Source: Candidatus Eiseniibacteriota bacterium
Lineage (GTDB): Bacteria > Eisenbacteria > RBG-16-71-46
Assembly (NCBI GenBank): GCA_963717935.1
Contig: CAVQXP010000002.1
Span: 192,001-256,000 of the forward strand
DNA: 64,000 nucleotides
Direction: 5' to 3'
The translations under genes and the position numbers were made by a program. Below the pieces are notes generated by a model. That model saw only the letters and a list, made by a program, of their open reading frames with translations. It ran no database searches and was not told the DNA's origin. This document shows, in pieces, positions 18,869 to 45,739 of the stretch; position 1 is the first letter of the stretch; each line of letters opens with the position of its first letter.

Positions 18869-19500
18869 TCGCCTCGCTGCGCGGCACCTTGCTCGAGAAG
18901 ACGCCCGGCGCCTGCGTGCTCGAGGCGGGCGGGGTCGGCTACCTGGTCCAGGTCTCGAGCCACACGGCCGCCGGCCTGCCGGCCGCGGGCCAGCCCGCGT
19001 TCCTGCGCACGCGCCAGATCGTGCGCGAGGACGCGGTCCAGCTCTTCGGCTTCGCCGCCGCGGAGGAACTCGAGCTCTTCGACCTGATGATCGCGGTGAG
19101 CGGCGTGGGACCGCGGCTCGCGCTCGCCGTGCTCTCGGGGCTCCGGCCGCAGGCGCTGCGCCGCGCCATCCGCGAGGAGCAGGTGGGGTTGCTCACCAGC
19201 GTGCCCGGCATCGGCAGGAAGACCGCCGAGCGGCTGGTCGTGGAGCTGCGCGACAAGCTCGAGGCGCTCCCCGTGCCCGGGGGCGCGGAGCCCGCGCGGG
19301 ATGGCGGCCTGCTGCCGCGCTCGGAGCGCTGGAACGATGCCGTCGCGGCGCTCACGCGCCTCGGGTACACTGCGGCGCAGGCACAGGAGGCCGTGCGCCG
19401 GGCCGCCGGGGCCGAGGAGGATCCGTCGCTGGAGCAACTGGTGCGCCGTGCCCTGGCCCTGCTGGGGCGGCCGGCCACCTCAGGCAAGGAGAGGCAGTGA
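18865..19500 (+). CDS. ruvA: Holliday junction branch migration protein RuvA
   Basis: MIASLRG, GVGY, VREDA..LFGF, Hh[10 protein letters not shown] and [11 protein letters not shown]. Confidence 0.96.
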
Positions 19501-20585
19501 GTCCGAGCGCGCGCCGCACGCCCGACCCGGCGTCACCCCCGTCCCACGACCGCGTCGCCGACCCCGAGGCGCTGCCCGAGGACCTCCAGGAGGAGCAGCG
19601 GCTCCGTCCCCTGGTGCTCGATGAATTCGTCGGGCAGCCGGGGCTCAAGGAGCAGCTGCGCATCTTCATCGAGGCCGCCCGGCGCCGTGGCGACGCGCTC
19701 GATCACGTGCTCTTCCACGGCCCCCCCGGGCTCGGCAAGACCACGCTGGCCTCGATCCTCGCGCACGAACTCGGCGTGGACATCACCCACACCTCGGGGC
19801 CGGTCATCGAGCGCCCCGGCGACCTGGCCGGGCTGCTGACGAACCTGCCGCCGCGCGGCATCCTGTTCGTGGACGAGATCCACCGCATGAGCCCGGTGAT
19901 CGAGGAGTACCTCTACCCGGCGCTCGAGGACTTCACGATCGACATCATGCTCGACCGCGGTCCCAGCGCCCGCTCGCTCAAGATCAACCTCGAGCGCTTC
20001 ACGCTGGTCGGCGCCACCACGCGCTCGGGCCTTCTGTCCGCGCCGCTGCGCGCGCGTTTTGGCGTCACCATGCGGCTCGACTACTACGGCGTCGAGGATC
20101 TCGCTCGCATCGTCACGCGCTCGGCCGGCATCCTCAAGGTGGAGACCGAGCCCGATGCCGCGCGGGAGATCGCGCGCCGGGCGCGCGGAACGCCCCGGGT
20201 GGCGAACCGGTTGCTGCGGCGCGTGCGCGACTTCGCCCTCATCAGGGCCGACGCGAAGGTCACCCTGCCGGTGACGCGCGAGGCGCTCCGGATGCTGGCC
20301 GTGGACGAGCGCGGGCTCGACGAGATGGACCGCCGCCTGCTCGACGCGCTCATCCAGAAGTACGGCGGCGGTCCCGTCGGCCTGGGCACGCTGGCCGTCG
20401 TCGTGGGCGAGGAGCCGGGCACGCTCGAGGAGGTCTACGAGCCGTTCCTCATCCAGGAGGGCTTCCTCAAGCGCACGCCGCGCGGCCGTGAGGCCACGGC
20501 TCTCGCCTACGAGCACCTCGGCCTGAAGGCGCCCGGCGGTGTTCCCGGCCCCGGCGACGCCCAGCCCGAGTTGCCGCTCTCCTGA
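19497..20585 (+). CDS. ruvB: Holliday junction branch migration helicase RuvB
   Basis: [49 protein letters not shown]. Confidence 0.97.
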
Positions 20586-20629
20586 GCCCGGGCCCGAGTG
20601 GCGTCCCTCCTTCGAGCGTGAGCCCCCCC

Positions 20630-38533: not shown

Positions 38534-39793
<1,260 letters not shown>

Positions 39794-40043
39794 GCCCGGT
39801 TCCGCGCGGCCGGGCTTCAGCCCGGCTGCGCGCCGCCCGCCCCGGGCGGGCCGCCAGCGCCCCACTCGCATCCCATCGACTCAGGCTGTAGTCTGACGCG
39901 CGCGTGAGCCCTGCGCGGGGGACCGGTCCCGGCCGGCCCGCGTGCGACGATGCGCCCCGGCGCGACCCGCGCGGCGCCCACCCGGGAGGCGGGGCCGGGG
40001 TCCCGCGAGCACGGTCCGCACGAACCCGCACCAAGGAGCCCCT

Positions 40044-42575
40044 GTGTCGCCCAGCAGCCCCCGCACGAAGCGCCGCCCGCCCGCGAAGCCGGAGTCCGCC
40101 CCGGCCGGGGCTCCCGCGAAGAAGAAGCCCGGGCCGGGCCCGGCGCTCGTGGTCACCCGCGGGGAGGAGACCTTCCAGGTTCGCGACCGCCTGCCGCTGC
40201 TGCCGCTGCGCGACGTCGTCGTGTTCCCCTCGATGACCATCCCGCTGCTGGTGGGGCGGCTGCCTTCCATCAGCGCGCTCGAGAAGGCCGTGGCGCGTGA
40301 CCGGTTGCTGTTCGTCACGGCGCAGACGCGCAGCGAGGTGGCCGATCCGACTCACGAGGAGCTCTACCCGGTGGGCACGCTGGCGCGCGTGCTCCAGCTC
40401 TTTCGTCTGCCCGACGGCACCATGCGGGTGCTGGTCGAGGGCCTGGTCCGCTGCCGTGCCCGGCGCTTCCTCTGGTCGAACGACTACTTCACGGTGAAGC
40501 TCGCGCTCGTGCCCGAGGCTCCGCCGGCTGGCGGGCCGGAACTGGAGGCGGCCCAGCGGCACGTATTGGGGCAGTTCAACGACTACGTGCACCTGAACCG
40601 GCGCATCCCTGACGAGGTCCTCACCACCGCCAGCGCCCTGACCGACCCGATGGCCCTGAGCTACACGCTCGCGGCGCACCTGCTGGTCAAGGTCTCGCAG
40701 AAGCAGCGGCTGCTCGAGGCTGCGGGCCCGGCCGAGCGGCTGCGCCTGCTGGGCGAGATGCTGGGAGCGGAGCTGGAGATCCTCAAGCTCGAGCGCAAGA
40801 TCGAGGGGCAGGTCCGCTCGCAGGTACACCGCAATCAGAAGGAGTTCTATCTCAACGAGCAGCTCAAGGCGATCCGCAAGGAGCTCGGCCACCAGAACGA
40901 GTTCGCCAGCGAGATCGACGATCTGAGCGTGGCCATCCGCAAGGCCCGCCTGCCGCGCGAGGTGCTGGCGAAGGCGATGAAGGAGCTGGACCGCCTCTCC
41001 AAGATGAGCTTCATGTCGCCCGAGGCGACGGTGGTGCGCAACTACCTGGACTGGCTGGTGTCGCTGCCCTGGGCCAGGGCCTCCCGCGACCAGAGCGACA
41101 TGGCGAAGGTCGAGAGCATCCTCGACGAAGACCACTTCGGACTGCAGAAGGTGAAGGAGCGCATCGTCGAGTATCTGGCGGTGCTCAAGCTGACGAAGAA
41201 GAACAAGGGCCCCATCCTGTGTCTGGTGGGGCCGCCGGGGGTGGGCAAGACCTCGCTTGGCCGCTCGATCGCACGGGCGCTCTCGCGCCGTTTCGTGCGC
41301 GTCGCGCTCGGTGGCGTGCGCGACGAGGCCGAGATCCGGGGGCACCGGCGCACCTACATCGGCTCGCTGCCGGGACGCGTCATCCAGAGCATCCGCCGGG
41401 CGGGCACGCGGAACCCGGTATTCCTGCTCGACGAGATCGACAAGCTCGGCGCCGATTTCCGCGGCGACCCCGCCTCGGCGCTGCTCGAGGTGCTGGATCC
41501 CGAGCAGAACCACACCTTCAACGACCACTACCTCGAAGTGGACTTCGACCTCTCGCAGGTGATGTTCATCTGCACGGCCAACTCCCAGCACTCGATCCCG
41601 CCGGCGCTCGTGGACCGCATGGAAACCCTCCGGCTGCCGTCCTATCACGAGAGCGAGAAGGTGCAGATCGCGCGGCGCTTCCTCATTCCCAAGCAGATCA
41701 AGGCGGCCGGACTCGAGCCCGCCAACCTGCAGATCGCCGCGCCGGCGCTGGCCGCGCTCATCCGCAGCTACACGCGCGAGGCCGGTGTGCGGAATCTGGA
41801 GCGCGAGATCGCCGGGCTGTGCCGCAAGGCGGCCAGGCGCAAGGCGGCGGGCCAGCTGGAGGGGGCGATGAACGTCACGCTCTCCAACCTGCACCGCTTC
41901 CTGGGGCCGCCCAAGTACATCGACCTGGCGGTGGAGCGCGTGGACCGGGTGGGCCTCGCGAACGGCCTGGCCTGGACCGAGGCGGGGGGCGACGTGCTCA
42001 CGATCGAGGTCAGCATCCTGCCCGGCAAGGGCGAGCTGCAGCTCACCGGGAAGCTGGGCGAGGTGATGCGCGAGTCCGCGCACGCGGCGCTCACCTGGAT
42101 CCGCTCCCGCGCCGAGCGCCTGGGACTCGACAAGCACTTCCACCGCGAGGTCGACGTGCACGTGCACGTGCCCGAGGGAGCCACGCCCAAGGACGGCCCT
42201 TCCGCCGGCATCTCGATCGCCCTGGCGATGGTGAGCGCGCTCACCGGCATCCCGACGCGGCACGAGGTCGCCATGACCGGCGAGATCACGCTGCGCGGGA
42301 ACGTCATCGCCGTGGGCGGCCTCACCGAGAAATCGCTGGCCGCCCGGCGCGCCGGTCTCGAGGTGATGCTGCTGCCCCGGTCGAACGAGAAGGACATCGC
42401 GGAGATGCCCGAGGAGGTGCGGGAGGGGCTCGAGCTCGTGCTGGTCGAGAGCATGGACCAGGTCCTCGATCGGGCGCTCGAACGCAAGGTCGAGCCGCGC
42501 ACCGCCGCGCCGCCGCCGCCGGCCGCGCCCGTCGTGAAACCACAGGAGGAGGGGCCGGCGGAGTACGCGCACTGA
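40044..42575 (+). CDS. lon: Lon protease
   Basis: AAGGAG RBS plus GTG, LPLRDVVVFP, GPPGVGKTS, RGHRRTYIG, PKDGPSAG (catalytic Ser), MTGEITLRG. Confidence 0.96.
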   Translation: MSPSSPRTKRRPPAKPESAPAGAPAKKKPGPGPALVVTRGEETFQVRDRLPLLPLRDVVVFPSMTIPLLVGRLPSISALEKAVARDRLLFVTAQTRSEVADPTHEELYPVGTLARVLQLFRLPDGTMRVLVEGLVRCRARRFLWSNDYFTVKLALVPEAPPAGGPELEAAQRHVLGQFNDYVHLNRRIPDEVLTTASALTDPMALSYTLAAHLLVKVSQKQRLLEAAGPAERLRLLGEMLGAELEILKLERKIEGQVRSQVHRNQKEFYLNEQLKAIRKELGHQNEFASEIDDLSVAIRKARLPREVLAKAMKELDRLSKMSFMSPEATVVRNYLDWLVSLPWARASRDQSDMAKVESILDEDHFGLQKVKERIVEYLAVLKLTKKNKGPILCLVGPPGVGKTSLGRSIARALSRRFVRVALGGVRDEAEIRGHRRTYIGSLPGRVIQSIRRAGTRNPVFLLDEIDKLGADFRGDPASALLEVLDPEQNHTFNDHYLEVDFDLSQVMFICTANSQHSIPPALVDRMETLRLPSYHESEKVQIARRFLIPKQIKAAGLEPANLQIAAPALAALIRSYTREAGVRNLEREIAGLCRKAARRKAAGQLEGAMNVTLSNLHRFLGPPKYIDLAVERVDRVGLANGLAWTEAGGDVLTIEVSILPGKGELQLTGKLGEVMRESAHAALTWIRSRAERLGLDKHFHREVDVHVHVPEGATPKDGPSAGISIALAMVSALTGIPTRHEVAMTGEITLRGNVIAVGGLTEKSLAARRAGLEVMLLPRSNEKDIAEMPEEVREGLELVLVESMDQVLDRALERKVEPRTAAPPPPAAPVVKPQEEGPAEYAH

Positions 42576-42603
42576 GATACCGTCTGGTTCATCAAGCGGT
42601 TTT

Positions 42604-43788
42604 TCATGCCGTCGCCTCCGCAGGATGGAGGATGGGGACAAACGGCTGCCGGCGCCGGGCCACGCTGTGGACGGCGCCGAGCAGCTTGTGCATGCAGGCG
42701 ACGAGCGCGACCTTGGGCAGCTTGCCGCGAGCGCGCAGGCGTTCGTAGTAGGCCTTGAGCCACGGGTTCTTCTGCACTGCGGTCAGGGTCGGCATCCAGA
42801 GGGCCTTGCGCAGCCGGGCGTTGCCGATCGAGGAGCAGCCTGCGCGTCGCGGCTGGTGTTTGCCCGACTGTTTGAGGGCAGGCACGACACCGACGTAGGC
42901 CGCCAGCGTTGCGGGCGAGTGGAAGTCGGCCGGGTTGCCGACCTCGGCGATGATGCGGGCGGCCGTGGTCGGGCCGATGCCATCGATGGTCGTGAGCAGC
43001 GTCCCGACCTCGTGCTCTGCGAGCGTGCACTCGATGTCGCCATCGATCTCGCGCAGGCGGCGGCGCAGCAGGTCCATGTCCTCGCAGCAGTGGTGAACCT
43101 GCAGGCGGTACGGAGGGCCGTGGAAGTGCCCGACCGAGACCCGCGCGGCCTCAATCAGGACCTTCGCGAGTTCGGGGCCCACGACGTGATGCCCGTCGTA
43201 ACGCAGGCGCGCGAGCCGCCCTGGCGCGAGGCCGTGGAACGCCTCGGCCGTGGGGTACTCATGCAGGATCGTGGTTGCCAACGCGCTGTCGAGGCTGTGC
43301 ACGTGACGGGTGAACTCGGGGAACCCCAGGTCCACCAGCCGGTGCAACTGGCGGGTGCGATCGCCGAAGTCCTGTACCAGCCGGTCACGGTGGCGCACGA
43401 GCTCGCGCAGTTCGTCCGTCGCGCGGTCGGGCAGCCGCGTCGCCGCCGGGTGCTTCTGTGACGCAAAGCGGGCGATATTCAGCGCGTCGACCGCGTCGGT
43501 CTTGGTGCGCTCGAGTTCCTCCTGCGCGAACCGGCTCGTCCGCCGCGGGTTCAGCAACGCAATCGCGAAGCCCTCACCGGCGAGCATCGCAAACAGGTTC
43601 TTCCAGTAGTGCCCGGTTGCCTCCATCGCCACCAGCGTGTCGGTGCTGGCCCCCAGCAACTCGCGCATCCGCGCGTAGCCCGCGGCGTCCTCGGCACACT
43701 TCGCGGCGCTCCGCAGCACCGCGCCGGCCTCATCCACGATGGCCACCACGTGCTGCTCCGAGCCGATGTCGATCCCCACGTAACGCAT
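42604..43788 (-). CDS. IS110-family DEDD recombinase/transposase
   Basis: AGGAG RBS; YVGIDIG, MEATGHYW, KTDAVDA (DEDD RuvC fold), TIDGIG, AYVGVVP, KQSGK (catalytic Ser), GNARLR. Confidence 0.97.
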   Translation of the reverse strand: MRYVGIDIGSEQHVVAIVDEAGAVLRSAAKCAEDAAGYARMRELLGASTDTLVAMEATGHYWKNLFAMLAGEGFAIALLNPRRTSRFAQEELERTKTDAVDALNIARFASQKHPAATRLPDRATDELRELVRHRDRLVQDFGDRTRQLHRLVDLGFPEFTRHVHSLDSALATTILHEYPTAEAFHGLAPGRLARLRYDGHHVVGPELAKVLIEAARVSVGHFHGPPYRLQVHHCCEDMDLLRRRLREIDGDIECTLAEHEVGTLLTTIDGIGPTTAARIIAEVGNPADFHSPATLAAYVGVVPALKQSGKHQPRRAGCSSIGNARLRKALWMPTLTAVQKNPWLKAYYERLRARGKLPKVALVACMHKLLGAVHSVARRRQPFVPILHPAEATA

Positions 43789-43830
43789 GCCCGTACTCCT
43801 TACCGACGGGAGTCCCCGGGAGCCTCGGAG

Positions 43831-44010
43831 CCGATGGCCCTGCTCGCGCTTGTGCATGCGAGGACCAGGCCTCTCGATACCGTTCGAGCCCTGACCATCG
43901 GTCGAGGGCGCCGATCTCAGTGACGAGGACAGAGCCTCAGCCCGCGCGGCCCGGCGCCCCTCTCCCGAACCCCGTCCCCGGGAGCCTACCCCCGCCCGAG
44001 GAGCCCGTGT
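43831..44010 (-). ncRNA. Putative bridge RNA (target-binding loop 43904-43962, donor-binding loop 43831-43901); 5' end approximate
   Basis: Two stem-closed internal loops carrying segments that match the donor junction (ACGGTATC, ACAAG) and the insertion site (CACTGAG). Confidence 0.8.
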
Positions 44011-44027
44011 GGAGGTGATACAAGCGA

Positions 44028-44096
44028 CGGGCCCTCTCGGGGCAGCAGGGCGAGCAGAGGCACCGTGCGCTCGCCCTGCTGCCCCGAGAGGGCCCG
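44028..44096. repeat. 28-bp perfect inverted repeat (REP-like or terminator-like hairpin) next to the IS left end
   Basis: CGGGCCCTCTCGGGGCAGCAGGGCGAGC (44028-44055), 13-nt loop, exact reverse complement at 44069-44096. Confidence 0.9.
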
Positions 44097-44129
44097 CGGA
44101 CAGTGATGAGCGCCGGAGGCCGGTCCGTC

Positions 44130-44368
44130 ATGAAAGTCCTCGTCGCCGAGTCGCTCGACCCCGCCGGCCTCGCGCGCCTGCGCGACGCGGGGCACGAGGT
44201 CGTGGAACGCGCGGGCCTCGCGGGCCGCGCGCTCGCCGAGGCGCTGCGCGACATGCAGGCGCTGGTCGTGCGGGGCGACACGCGGGTGACCGAGGAGGCG
44301 CTGCGCGGCGCGCCGCGCTCGAAGCCGCGGCGATCGTGGTCGAGACGCTGGCGCGGCCGCGAGGCTGA
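44130..44368 (+). pseudogene. D-3-phosphoglycerate dehydrogenase relic with a large internal deletion
   Basis: MKVLVAESLDPAGL...ALVVRGDTRVTEEALRGAPR (SerA N-terminus) joined out of frame to a C-terminal-like helix ALEAAAIVVETL; directly upstream of purA. Confidence 0.7.
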
Positions 44369-44464: not shown

Positions 44465-45739
44465 ATGCCGTGCACCGTGGTCGTCGGCGCTCAGTGGGGC
44501 GACGAGGGCAAAGGCAAGATCGTCGACGCGTTGAGCGCCGCCGCCGACATCGTCGCTCGCTACCAGGGTGGCCCCAACGCCGGGCACAGCGTCGTCCGGG
44601 CGGGGCGGACCCTCGTGCTTCACCTGGTGCCCTCCGGCGTCATGCACGACGGCCGGCGCTGCCTCATCGGCAACGGCGTGGTCGTGGACCTCCAGAGCCT
44701 GCGCGAGGAGGTCGAGCGGCTCGAGGCCCTCGGCCTCGACGTGAGCCCCCGGCTCGGCGTGAGCACCGCCGCCCATCTCATCCTGCCGCAGCACCGCGCG
44801 GTCGAAGCCTTCGCCGAGGCCGGTGCCGGCGCGATCGGTACGACCGGGCGCGGCATCGGCTTCGCCTACCGCGACAAGGCCGCGCGCACCGGGCTGCGGG
44901 TCGGCGACCTGTTCGAGCCGGCCCGCTTCGTCGCCGCGGTGGACCGCAACCTGGAGCGCCTGCGCCTGGAGTTCCCCGCGGTCGGAGCGCTCGCCTCGAT
45001 GAGCGGCGCGGGGCTGCTGGCCGAGTGGCGCGAAGTCGCCGCCTGGCTCGAACCCCTGGTGTGCGACGTCTCCGCCGAGTTGCACGCCGCCCTCAAGGCC
45101 GGCAGGCATGTCCTGCTCGAGGGCGCGCAGGGCACGCTCCTCGACCTGGACCACGGCACCTATCCCTACGTGACCTCCTCGCCCGCGAGCGCGGCCGGCG
45201 CGCCGCTGGGCGTGGGGCTGGGACCCCGCGTCGTGGACCGCGTGATCGGCGTGACCAAGGCGTACACCACGCGCGTGGGGCACGGGCCGTTCCCCAGCGA
45301 GATGCCCGAGGCGGAGGCCGGGCGGTTGCGCGAGGCGGGGGAGGAGTATGGCGCGACCACCGGGCGGCCACGGCGCTGCGGCTGGCTCGACCTGCCGGCG
45401 CTGCGCTACGCGGCGCGCGTGAACGGGCTCGACGCGCTGGTGGTCACGAAGCTCGACGTGCTGGACGGCTTCGAGGAGATCCGCGTCGTCGTCGGCTACG
45501 AGCGCGACGGACGCCCGGTGGAGGGTTTCCCGGCCGGGGCGGGCGCGCTCGAGCGCTGCCGGCCGGTGTGGCGCGGTTTCCCGGGCTGGCGGGCACCCAC
45601 GACCGCGGCCCGGCGCTGGGCGGACCTGCCGGCCCGCGCCCACGAGTACCTGGAGTGGATCGAGCGCGAGAGCGGCGTGCCCATCGCCTCCGTCTCGGTC
45701 GGGCCGGAGCGCGAGGCCGAGGTCCAACGGGTGCGTTGA
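44465..45739 (+). CDS. purA: Adenylosuccinate synthetase
   Basis: GAQWGDEGKGK, GGPNAGH, IGTTGRGIG, EGAQG, GTYPYVTSS, YTTRVG, TTGRPRRCGW. Confidence 0.97.
   Translation: MPCTVVVGAQWGDEGKGKIVDALSAAADIVARYQGGPNAGHSVVRAGRTLVLHLVPSGVMHDGRRCLIGNGVVVDLQSLREEVERLEALGLDVSPRLGVSTAAHLILPQHRAVEAFAEAGAGAIGTTGRGIGFAYRDKAARTGLRVGDLFEPARFVAAVDRNLERLRLEFPAVGALASMSGAGLLAEWREVAAWLEPLVCDVSAELHAALKAGRHVLLEGAQGTLLDLDHGTYPYVTSSPASAAGAPLGVGLGPRVVDRVIGVTKAYTTRVGHGPFPSEMPEAEAGRLREAGEEYGATTGRPRRCGWLDLPALRYAARVNGLDALVVTKLDVLDGFEEIRVVVGYERDGRPVEGFPAGAGALERCRPVWRGFPGWRAPTTAARRWADLPARAHEYLEWIERESGVPIASVSVGPEREAEVQRVR

Follow-up and report, generated by a model that had tools for sequence, protein, structure and literature searches.

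An IS110-family insertion sequence behind lon with a predicted bridge RNA whose right guide matches the lon stop codon

How did an insertion sequence (IS) come to lie exactly on the stop codon of lon while leaving the gene intact, and is that stop codon written into the element's own RNA guide? The question is raised by a stretch of 64,000 nucleotides (hereafter the window) from a contig of a Candidatus Eiseniibacteriota bacterium (CAVQXP010000002.1), in which an element of the IS110 family abuts the 3' end of lon. A first-pass annotation of this DNA proposed that the guide is programmed for a TGA stop codon followed by GCCCG, and that the element may target gene ends. We consider it likely that this is one intact, IS621-like element, guided by a bridge RNA whose right arm is aimed at the lon stop, and that it arrived through a half-match. 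As in IS621, the left end would be transcribed into the bridge RNA that guides the recombinase. The right guide, 5'-CACUGAG, would pair with CT-CAGTG, which is complementary to the end of lon (last codon and TGA) and to the G that follows. Across the clade, guides in which UGAG is nearly fixed and the three preceding bases are reprogrammed would aim each element at NNN-TGA-G, and the left guide would count for little except at the core and some three bases next to it. The window copy, with a left flank unfit for its left guide, would have come in by a half-match of right arm plus core.

The recombinase has the two domains that define the IS110 family, an N-terminal DEDD/RuvC-like domain (DEDD_Tnp_IS110, PF01548, residues 4-157, E = 5e-38) and a C-terminal Tnp domain (Transposase_20, PF02371, residues 263-349, E = 3.3e-27). 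By the layout of its ends the element fits the IS110 rather than the IS1111 group, with a left end (LE) of 236 nt that carries the RNA motifs upstream of the recombinase gene and a right end (RE) of 27 nt. Read on its own strand (minus), it starts with CT-TGTATCACC (44024-44013) and ends with AGACGGTAT-CT (42585-42575), and the same core dinucleotide, CT, stands at both junctions (42576-42575 and 44024-44023). No second copy of the element ends or of the RNA motifs was found within the window. The lon gene ends in CAC TGA (42570-42575), followed by G42576; since the core is kept at both junctions, the stop codon that it overlaps is undamaged, as the first-pass annotation had stated.

The left end encodes a predicted RNA with two internal loops, a target-binding loop (TBL) and a donor-binding loop (DBL). 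The same layout was found in 64 of the 80 related loci described below and in the window. An outer stem that is conserved comes first, then a 5' loop strand that varies, and a short hairpin; the 3' loop strand has four variable bases ahead of UGAG, and after it come the closing stem and the second loop, which carries AACGGUAUC and ...ACAAG. When 53 non-redundant sequences of this RNA were aligned, 19 of the 38 consensus pairs had compensatory double changes. The inner stem of the TBL exchanges AU with GC in 8 sequences and GC with AU in 5, the outer stems of the DBL have 7-21 compensatory sequences per pair, and the centroid fold of the window RNA takes the same shape as the consensus TBL. The left target guide (LTG; GCGCGGGCT on the minus strand, 43947-43939) and the right target guide (RTG; CACTGAG, 43922-43916) lie where they had been placed before, and this placement is supported by the covariation of the two-loop RNA and by that of the RTG with the flank across relatives. 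In the DBL, the left donor guide (LDG; AACGGUAUC) fits the element's own left donor (LD), ACGGTAT-C, and the right donor guide (RDG) is complementary to CT+TGT in 39/39 cases. Handshake bases of the kind described for IS621 (Hiraizumi et al. 2024, PMC11208158) are present too: the RTG is followed by AU, which can pair with LD6-7 (AT), and the first handshake base of the DBL pairs with position 7 of the left target (LT7) at 85% of sites, versus 51% by permutation (0/3000 permutations as high). Finally, TTGnnn stands at a fixed distance in the right ends of 51/53 relatives and TAnnnn in their left ends; the 17-bp spacing between the two arises only once the element ends are joined in a circle, which alone would complete this putative promoter. 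The promoter of IS621 is likewise divided between right and left ends (Durrant et al. 2024, PMC11208160). Judged by every sequence feature tested, the element is a bridge-RNA element, and we infer that the window copy makes and uses its RNA.

Joining the two flanks gives the empty site, CACTGAG followed by CGACGGG on the plus strand, which agrees with the predicted target CACTGAGCCCGCGC at 9/14 positions. The earlier count is confirmed, perfect on the right and poor on the left: the RTG is complementary to CT-CAGTG at 7/7 positions, and the LTG agrees with its flank, CCCGTCG-CT, at 2/7 plus the core. This poor left match lowers the standing of a canonical full-match insertion, not that of membership of the bridge-RNA system.

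To what extent each arm is obeyed can be read from the relatives. A recombinase scan of a collection of species-representative genomes gave 533 confirmed relatives, of which the best 80 were examined; their proteins are 54-72% identical to the window recombinase, the closest full-length one among these 80 at 72%, and many of the loci are short contigs of metagenome-assembled genomes (MAGs). Right flanks of at least 8 nt were available at 45 loci, and 41 sites remained after the removal of four near-identical flanks. The identity between the RTG and the right target (RT) at positions 1-8 was 1.00, 1.00, 1.00, 1.00, 0.93, 0.88, 0.95 and 0.34, positions 1-2 being CT at 41/41 right junctions. Over the variable positions 5-8 the mean was 3.10/4, versus 1.31 ± 0.14 when permuted (maximum 1.85 in 5000 permutations). 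Position 8, which is mismatched in the window too, is at chance, and the right guide therefore consists of the core plus five bases. Of the 65 RNAs (from the 64 loci and the window), 60 have an RTG with UGAG at its end, so that the TGA is no accident of a single copy. Three copies of one related IS with a common right guide were found in a single MAG on two contigs (L050, L051 and L052); the two whose right flanks were found (L051 and L052) have the same right heptamer, ending CGC TGA G, and the left flanks of the three are all different (GAAGAGG, CCACGGG and TATCGAG).

The constancy of UGAG could have a different origin. If the CA that follows the core were a mechanical need of the clade's recombinase or of the RNA fold, the TGA would be a by-product, and these two bases are indeed nearly invariant at the target (C in 39/41 sites, A in 40/41). 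We regard this as improbable. Four elements with other guides and known flanks (L036, L054, L065 and L068) have flanks that changed along with the guide in 4/4 cases, and the CA is thus a target read by the guide rather than a part of the element end. More distant relatives (L069 and L071) have CT-GA, the natural target of IS621 has AC after CT (Durrant et al. 2024, PMC11208160), and a mechanical need would leave unexplained the frame-exact link with start codons and the antisense frame described below. A single guide, that of L012, has UAAG in place of UGAG, which gives a TAA stop in the same register; the right end of this element was not found.

A guide that ends in UGAG has a target whose opposite strand reads NNN-TGA-G. 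We therefore asked how often this TGA is a real stop codon, using 41 independent sites whose flanks reach 304 nt or more and calling an open reading frame (ORF) coding-like if it had at least 100 codons and a G+C content at third codon positions (GC3) that was higher by 0.2 or more than that at second positions (GC2). Such an ORF ends at the TGA at 19/41 sites, compared with 52/792 background TGAG sites in the same flanks (6.6%) and 16/325 in the window (p = 2e-12). Pfam matches were found for 16/25 target ORFs; they belong to unrelated families (among them peptidyl-tRNA hydrolase, RmlC, thiolase, three ABC ATPases, three permeases, glyoxalase, a ferredoxin-type subunit and the Phd antitoxin), with domains that reach to within a few residues of the TGA. 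These TGAs are native stops of intact genes, and the targeting of gene ends in the clade, which had been proposed from the window copy, is supported by the flanks of its relatives. Labels of the rebuilt empty sites as intragenic or intergenic were rejected as unreliable, as shadow ORFs in GC-rich DNA, one of them opposite lon, are called as covering the site. Two relatives (L004 4209-4442 and L049 2351-2764) lie at toxin-antitoxin junctions, one directly after a Phd/YefM antitoxin gene and the other directly before a PIN-domain gene; such an insertion would separate the translation of toxin and antitoxin.

An excess of stops can also result from survivorship only, with insertion at any core plus right-arm match, loss of the intragenic copies, and no adaptive meaning for UGAG. 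Background TGAG sites are mostly intragenic (232/326 in the window, 508/712 in the flanks), and once these are purged, stops make up 15% (window) to 20% (flanks) of the remainder by a crude gene caller. The observed 19/41 is still above 20% (p = 1.3e-4) and above a generous 30% that allows for a caller undercounting genes (p = 0.02), and UGAG is held while the three neighbouring bases vary freely. The base before the TGA on the gene strand is A at 17 of the 41 sites, G at 16, C at 8 and T at none. Stop-start overlaps in operons usually read ATGA or GTGA, and so many As are odd for GC-rich last codons and expected for ATGA overlaps. The downstream side agrees with this: at the left junction a coding-like ORF of at least 100 codons lies in the frame of the xTG start at 19/40 independent sites (13/19 among the A guides), versus 2 and 5 in the other frames (p = 4e-5). 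We thus hold survivorship by itself to be quite unlikely; it may account for part of the stop excess, not for all of it. UGAG may have been kept by the clade because insertions are thereby harmless.

The left arm behaves differently. At 43 sites (45 loci, 2 removed), the mean agreement was 4.33/7, versus 3.19 ± 0.15 when permuted (maximum 3.88), and the position matrix restricts the signal to LT5-7, adjoining the core, with identities of 0.79 (LT7), 0.65 and 0.58, and about 0.4 farther out. The register of the LTG, in which its last T is shared with the inner stem, is backed by L047 and L056 (8/9 and 6/9, in this register only). The data support a dominant role of the right arm in target choice within the clade. 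Of the earlier idea of an extended right guide that tolerates left mismatches, the part that stands is that the right arm is obeyed far better; it does not extend beyond the core plus five. Because of this imbalance in the relatives, a right-only match is in character for the window copy, and at 6 of the 31 sites with both flanks the right arm is perfect and the left agrees at 3/7 or fewer. The GCCCG that had been joined to the TGA is a private left guide of the window copy, and no site matching it was seen. Arrival by a half-match is most likely.

The site might instead have been a full match at arrival, with the left flank or the left guide changed later by point drift or by rearrangement near the left end. 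The neighbourhood has suffered deletion, as the stump of a dehydrogenase gene (44130-44368) lies 100 bp away, and the second handshake base of the DBL fits the actual LT6 (C) and not the G of the LTG, a position at which the covariation in the family is weak (0.54 vs 0.42). Yet 5/7 left positions differ, which is too many for drift when right arm, donor guides and recombinase are perfect; the hairpin directly behind the junction looks like an undisturbed lon terminator; and poor left matches recur among relatives in unrelated places. Later change is therefore unlikely in our view. That same hairpin has a perfect 27-bp stem, ends 4 nt from the core and could act as a structural gate on the target DNA that offsets the mismatches of the left guide, as proposed for ISPpu10, in which a target-encoded 5' stem-loop is described as a second determinant (preprint 10.64898/2026.03.19.712850). 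The stem of ISPpu10 includes the left target, however, and the window hairpin lies mostly outside it; the left flanks of the relatives have a mean z of -0.65, with values below -2 in 5/43 only (52-nt windows, mononucleotide shuffles). Such a gate is highly improbable here.

Several observations weigh against a half-match insertion programmed by a right guide for stop codons. No second copy of the window element was found in the species-representative collection, and consequently no instance of its full-match target is on record and the rules applied to it come from relatives. The two other CACTGAG sites of the window (12179-12185 on the plus strand, within long ORFs without Pfam match, and 44490-44496 on the minus strand, within purA) are empty. 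The left match of the window copy is in the low tail, 2/7 or less occurring at 8/43 sites, and 22/41 target sites are not at a recognised gene end, besides the smaller stop excess left by the 20% and 30% baselines. Folded as a single sequence, the RNA does not stand out from shuffles (z of -0.37 with the left end and -0.64 with the TBL), and an Rfam scan of 42400-44300 at E <= 1 gave no bridge-RNA family, with sub-threshold microRNA (miRNA) models on the hairpin only; it is hence the covariation that speaks for the RNA structure. The sites come from related elements, so that the counts overstate independence, and genes were called from ORF length, GC3 and Pfam rather than by a gene finder. A search of a plasmid collection (blastn, distant mode) gave 13 records, the best with 68% DNA identity over 92% (Sandaracinus plasmids), and none is a copy of the window element.

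The first-pass annotation had also supposed that the element avoids disrupting ORFs. This holds for lon and for the intact genes that end at the TGA in relatives, but the clade mostly hits ATGA/GTGA overlaps and so severs the start of the next gene. The left-junction ORFs are confirmed as real genes by Pfam at 13/19 sites, with the first domain beginning at residue ~10-35, and the downstream gene is often the expected operon partner of the upstream one: an ABC ATPase downstream of a permease (L023), an ABC-2 membrane protein downstream of an ATPase (L024), OppC-type permeases downstream of DppB-type permeases (L060, L064), a relaxase downstream of VirD1/MobC (L033) and a molybdopterin subunit downstream of a ferredoxin subunit (L046). 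Most relatives thus sever the downstream gene from its own start codon, and the element appears to replace that start. Read outward, the left terminus is xTG AGT GGA NNN CAT ACA AG; it thereby offers an ATG, GTG or TTG that is in frame and six codons from the core. Such a terminal start codon is present in 32/35 elements with A or G guides, in 3/11 with CTGAG guides and in 0/5 with other guides (rows not deduplicated). In L024, for example, MSESGF... becomes MSGSHTSESGF.... At the eight left junctions worked out in this way (L017, L018, L023, L024, L033, L046, L060 and L064), 8/8 downstream genes begin with Met/Val-Ser; the Ser of codon 2 is AG + C, its first two bases coming from the core and its third from the conserved G of LT7. 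A different relative (L037 2-460) is an IS within an IS: it lies in the gene of a Mutator-family transposase, and Pfam positions 239-378 (of 379) of this transposase follow on from the junction. The idea that the xTGAGT of the left end is a decoy pairing with the RTG was rejected, since its x is independent of the x of the guide (L027, L037, L046 and L064, for instance, combine an A guide with a G motif).

Between the two junctions, the frame set by the host xTG at the right junction is open through the element and ends at the TGA of the terminal ATGA in 24/41 elements, at 23/28 with A/G guides vs 1/13 with others (Fisher p = 9e-6). Openness antisense to the recombinase gene was rejected as evidence, because a codon-aligned antisense frame stays open by codon bias; the argument uses only the non-coding ends, the exact boundaries and the association with guide class. 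In the non-coding left end of A/G elements the through-frame is stop-free in 27/28, vs 16/28 and 9/28 for the other frames (p = 1e-6). Of the 41 elements, 34 have a length of 2 mod 3, and of the 13 distinct left-end lengths in this whole set, 9 are 1 mod 3 (p = 0.009). The 24 through-frame elements have left ends of 235, 238, 241, 244, 256 and 265 nt and right ends of 25, 28, 61, 67 and 103 nt, all 1 mod 3, which is partly forced by selecting on an open frame. Two elements with CTGAG guides have long antisense frames that are out of frame with the host codon: that of L007 is nearly complete, with stops only at 11 and 1436 of 1453 nt, and that of L013 runs from the host TGA to 1438. Such frames open readily in a GC-rich genome, and the window itself has a 963-aa ORF antisense to lon (39750-42641, minus).

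We tentatively propose, as plausible though short of probable, that most of the clade are 'cistron-mimic' insertion sequences. The bridge RNA would aim the element at ATGA/GTGA stop-start overlaps between operon genes, where the stop of the upstream gene would be retained. The host start codon, with its ribosome-binding site, would then drive an antisense frame of 475-504 codons across the element from end to end, through the bridge-RNA gene and the 'non-coding' ends as well. The stop of this frame would lie in an ATGA that the element itself carries, 18 nt from its left terminus, and the ATG of this ATGA would restart the downstream gene in frame with six extra codons (e.g., M-S-G-Q-H-T), and translation and coupling across the operon would survive the insertion. 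The window copy would descend from such elements, its aim having shifted to an ordinary terminal stop, with C before the TGA, and its antisense frame having decayed. Its guide has C before UGAG and so reads an ordinary stop (CAC TGA G) rather than an overlap. It has no terminal start codon (left terminus CCG TGT GGA GGT GAT ACA), its ends are 236 and 27 nt long, and the frame entered at the junction has 58 codons only. In place of the intact frame of the 24 relatives, its codon-aligned antisense frame is broken by two stops (plus 43459-43461 and 43921-43923), and the second of these arises from the variable bases of its own right guide.

Two further genes of the window had been cited as resembling the predicted target at their ends, and the strings are present at true gene ends: TCCTGAGCCCGGGC at 20580-20593, at the end of ruvB (ORF 19497-20585), and GCCTGAGCCCGGTT at 39788-39801, at the end of clpX (38534-39793). 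The likeness is at chance level. With up to 3 mismatches, the predicted 14-mer has 32 sites in the window, where 36.5 ± 6.1 are expected, and 83/100 shuffles have at least 32, which is no enrichment; ruvB (TCC) and clpX (GCC) differ from the CAC of the RTG at 2/3 of the variable bases, in the very arm that relatives obey. What they have in common with the target is GC-rich sequence after a TGA, and that is chance.

The features of the locus are collected in Table 1. Beyond the element lies the hairpin, probably the terminator of lon, now cut off and 1.45 kb from its gene; its sub-threshold miRNA matches in Rfam are artefacts of its shape. The dehydrogenase gene that follows loses its frame, and before the next stop the sequence resembles a C-terminal remnant in another frame, which suggests an internal deletion.

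Table 1. Positions of the element, its predicted RNA, its target and the adjoining features in the window.
Feature	Position	Strand	Remarks
lon, intact	39942..42575	+	Convergent with recombinase gene; Pfam Lon_C, LON_substr_bdg, AAA, Lon_lid
Right half of target	42570..42576	+	lon last codon CAC, stop TGA, G
Core CT (AG on plus), RE junction	42575..42576	-	A42575 is the third base of the lon stop
IS110-family insertion sequence, intact	42577..44024	-	1448 bp core to core; termini ...ACGGTAT-CT and CT-TGTAT common to relatives
Right end, 27 nt	42577..42603	-	LD ACGGTAT; TTGATG at 42590-42595, -35 half of putative promoter
Recombinase gene, 394 aa, intact	42604..43788	-	Pfam DEDD_Tnp_IS110 + Transposase_20; residues 1-392 align with relatives
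Left non-coding end encoding predicted bridge RNA	43789..44022	-	TATCAC (-10 half) at 44015-44020
Donor-binding loop (DBL)	43834..43898	-	LDG AACGGUAUC 43876-43884; RDG ...ACAAG 43849-43853; handshake CG 43847-43848
Target-binding loop (TBL)	43899..43967	-	Outer stem, internal loop, inner hairpin GAGG...CCUC; covarying consensus structure
Right target guide (RTG) CACUGAG	43916..43922	-	3' side of internal loop; variable CAC + clade-constant UGAG
Left target guide (LTG) GCGCGGGCU	43939..43947	-	5' side of internal loop; in this register it covaries with LT5-7 across the family
Core CT (AG on plus), LE junction	44023..44024	-	
Left half of target as found	44025..44031	+	CGACGGG plus, CCCGTCG minus; mismatched to LTG
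Perfect 27-bp-stem hairpin	44027..44097		Arms 44029-44055 and 44069-44095; 13-nt loop; no T-run; unique in window
D-isomer 2-hydroxyacid dehydrogenase stump	44130..44368	+	Profile positions 1-61 of 134, then frame lost; 100 bp away

Taken alone, the window gives a modest finding, one element behind an intact lon. The clade has wider implications, as work is under way to turn bridge recombinases into programmable tools for genome writing, and their natural targets are mostly described as REP (repetitive extragenic palindromic) elements or other repeats. A stop codon built into the guide, mostly that of an operon overlap, would let a short RNA guide find abundant, universal and nearly harmless sites, and natural data on arm specificity, with a dominant right and a loose left arm, are relevant to off-target design. 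Bridge RNAs, guide geometry, handshake bases and the split promoter are already published, half-match recombination and stem-loop gating are in preprints, and the hed ORF of IS900, discussed last, is an old observation. Our literature search gave no account of IS110 elements aimed at stop codons or ATGA overlaps, though supplementary target tables may bear on this; the term 'stop codon' has 0 occurrences in the main text of Durrant et al., and the seekRNA paper uses it for the tnp gene only.

The closest described system is IS621, with the IS110 group to which it belongs (PMC11208160, PMC11208158). As described in these papers, it has in common with the window element a DEDD + Tnp recombinase, a 5' non-coding RNA with target and donor loops, a CT core in all four pairings, an LTG that reads the bottom strand and an RTG that reads the top strand, handshake bases after RTG and RDG, and a promoter split between right and left ends. 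It differs in its targets, which are REP elements in IS621 and not in this clade, and in the bases after the core, where the clade fixes CA (TGA on the other strand) and IS621 has AC. The native right guide of the clade also pairs 7 bp, against 4 in IS621, and its left guide is obeyed only next to the core. Imperfect matches are known from IS621 as well, the commonest natural target of which is one base off the target encoded by its loop (Durrant et al. 2024, PMC11208160). In vitro, according to a preprint (10.64898/2026.08.31.748434), a single half-site plus core suffices for its recombination, so that a core with one matching arm accounts for insertions in which the other arm does not fit, as we propose for the window copy. 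The data described in that preprint are in vitro, with donor-like half-sites in re-analysed data, and right-target-only matches could not be scored there, the RTG of IS621 being 4 bp long; the right-only matches reported here are in natural insertions. ISPpu10, treated under the term 'sequence-structure dual match' (10.64898/2026.03.19.712850), is similarly an IS110 element with a GC-rich stem-loop on the left side of its target. Its described targets are, however, copies of REP, 97% of them intergenic, and this clade has no family-wide stem-loop.

The last comparison is with IS900 and its hed ORF, reportedly the subject of a 1997 paper by Doran et al. If the relatives are read correctly, that puzzle of 1997 would be linked to RNA-guided targeting, with the question of whether the antisense frame makes a protein or is a means to keep ribosomes moving. 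As described by Conde et al. (2021, PMC8141618), the hed ORF of IS900 from Mycobacterium avium subsp. paratuberculosis runs on the opposite strand over the whole element, without a ribosome-binding site or start of its own, and depends on the host for both; the element is described there as targeting translation initiation signals. The likeness, which is by description, covers membership of the IS110 family, a length of ~1.45 kb and an antisense frame that spans the element in relatives of the window copy; the window copy itself lacks an intact one. Unlike in IS900, the host signal used in this clade is a stop-start overlap rather than a gap before a start codon, and the frame ends in an element-borne ATGA able to restart the next host gene. 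The link that this draws between a hed-like frame and the guide of a bridge RNA is new.

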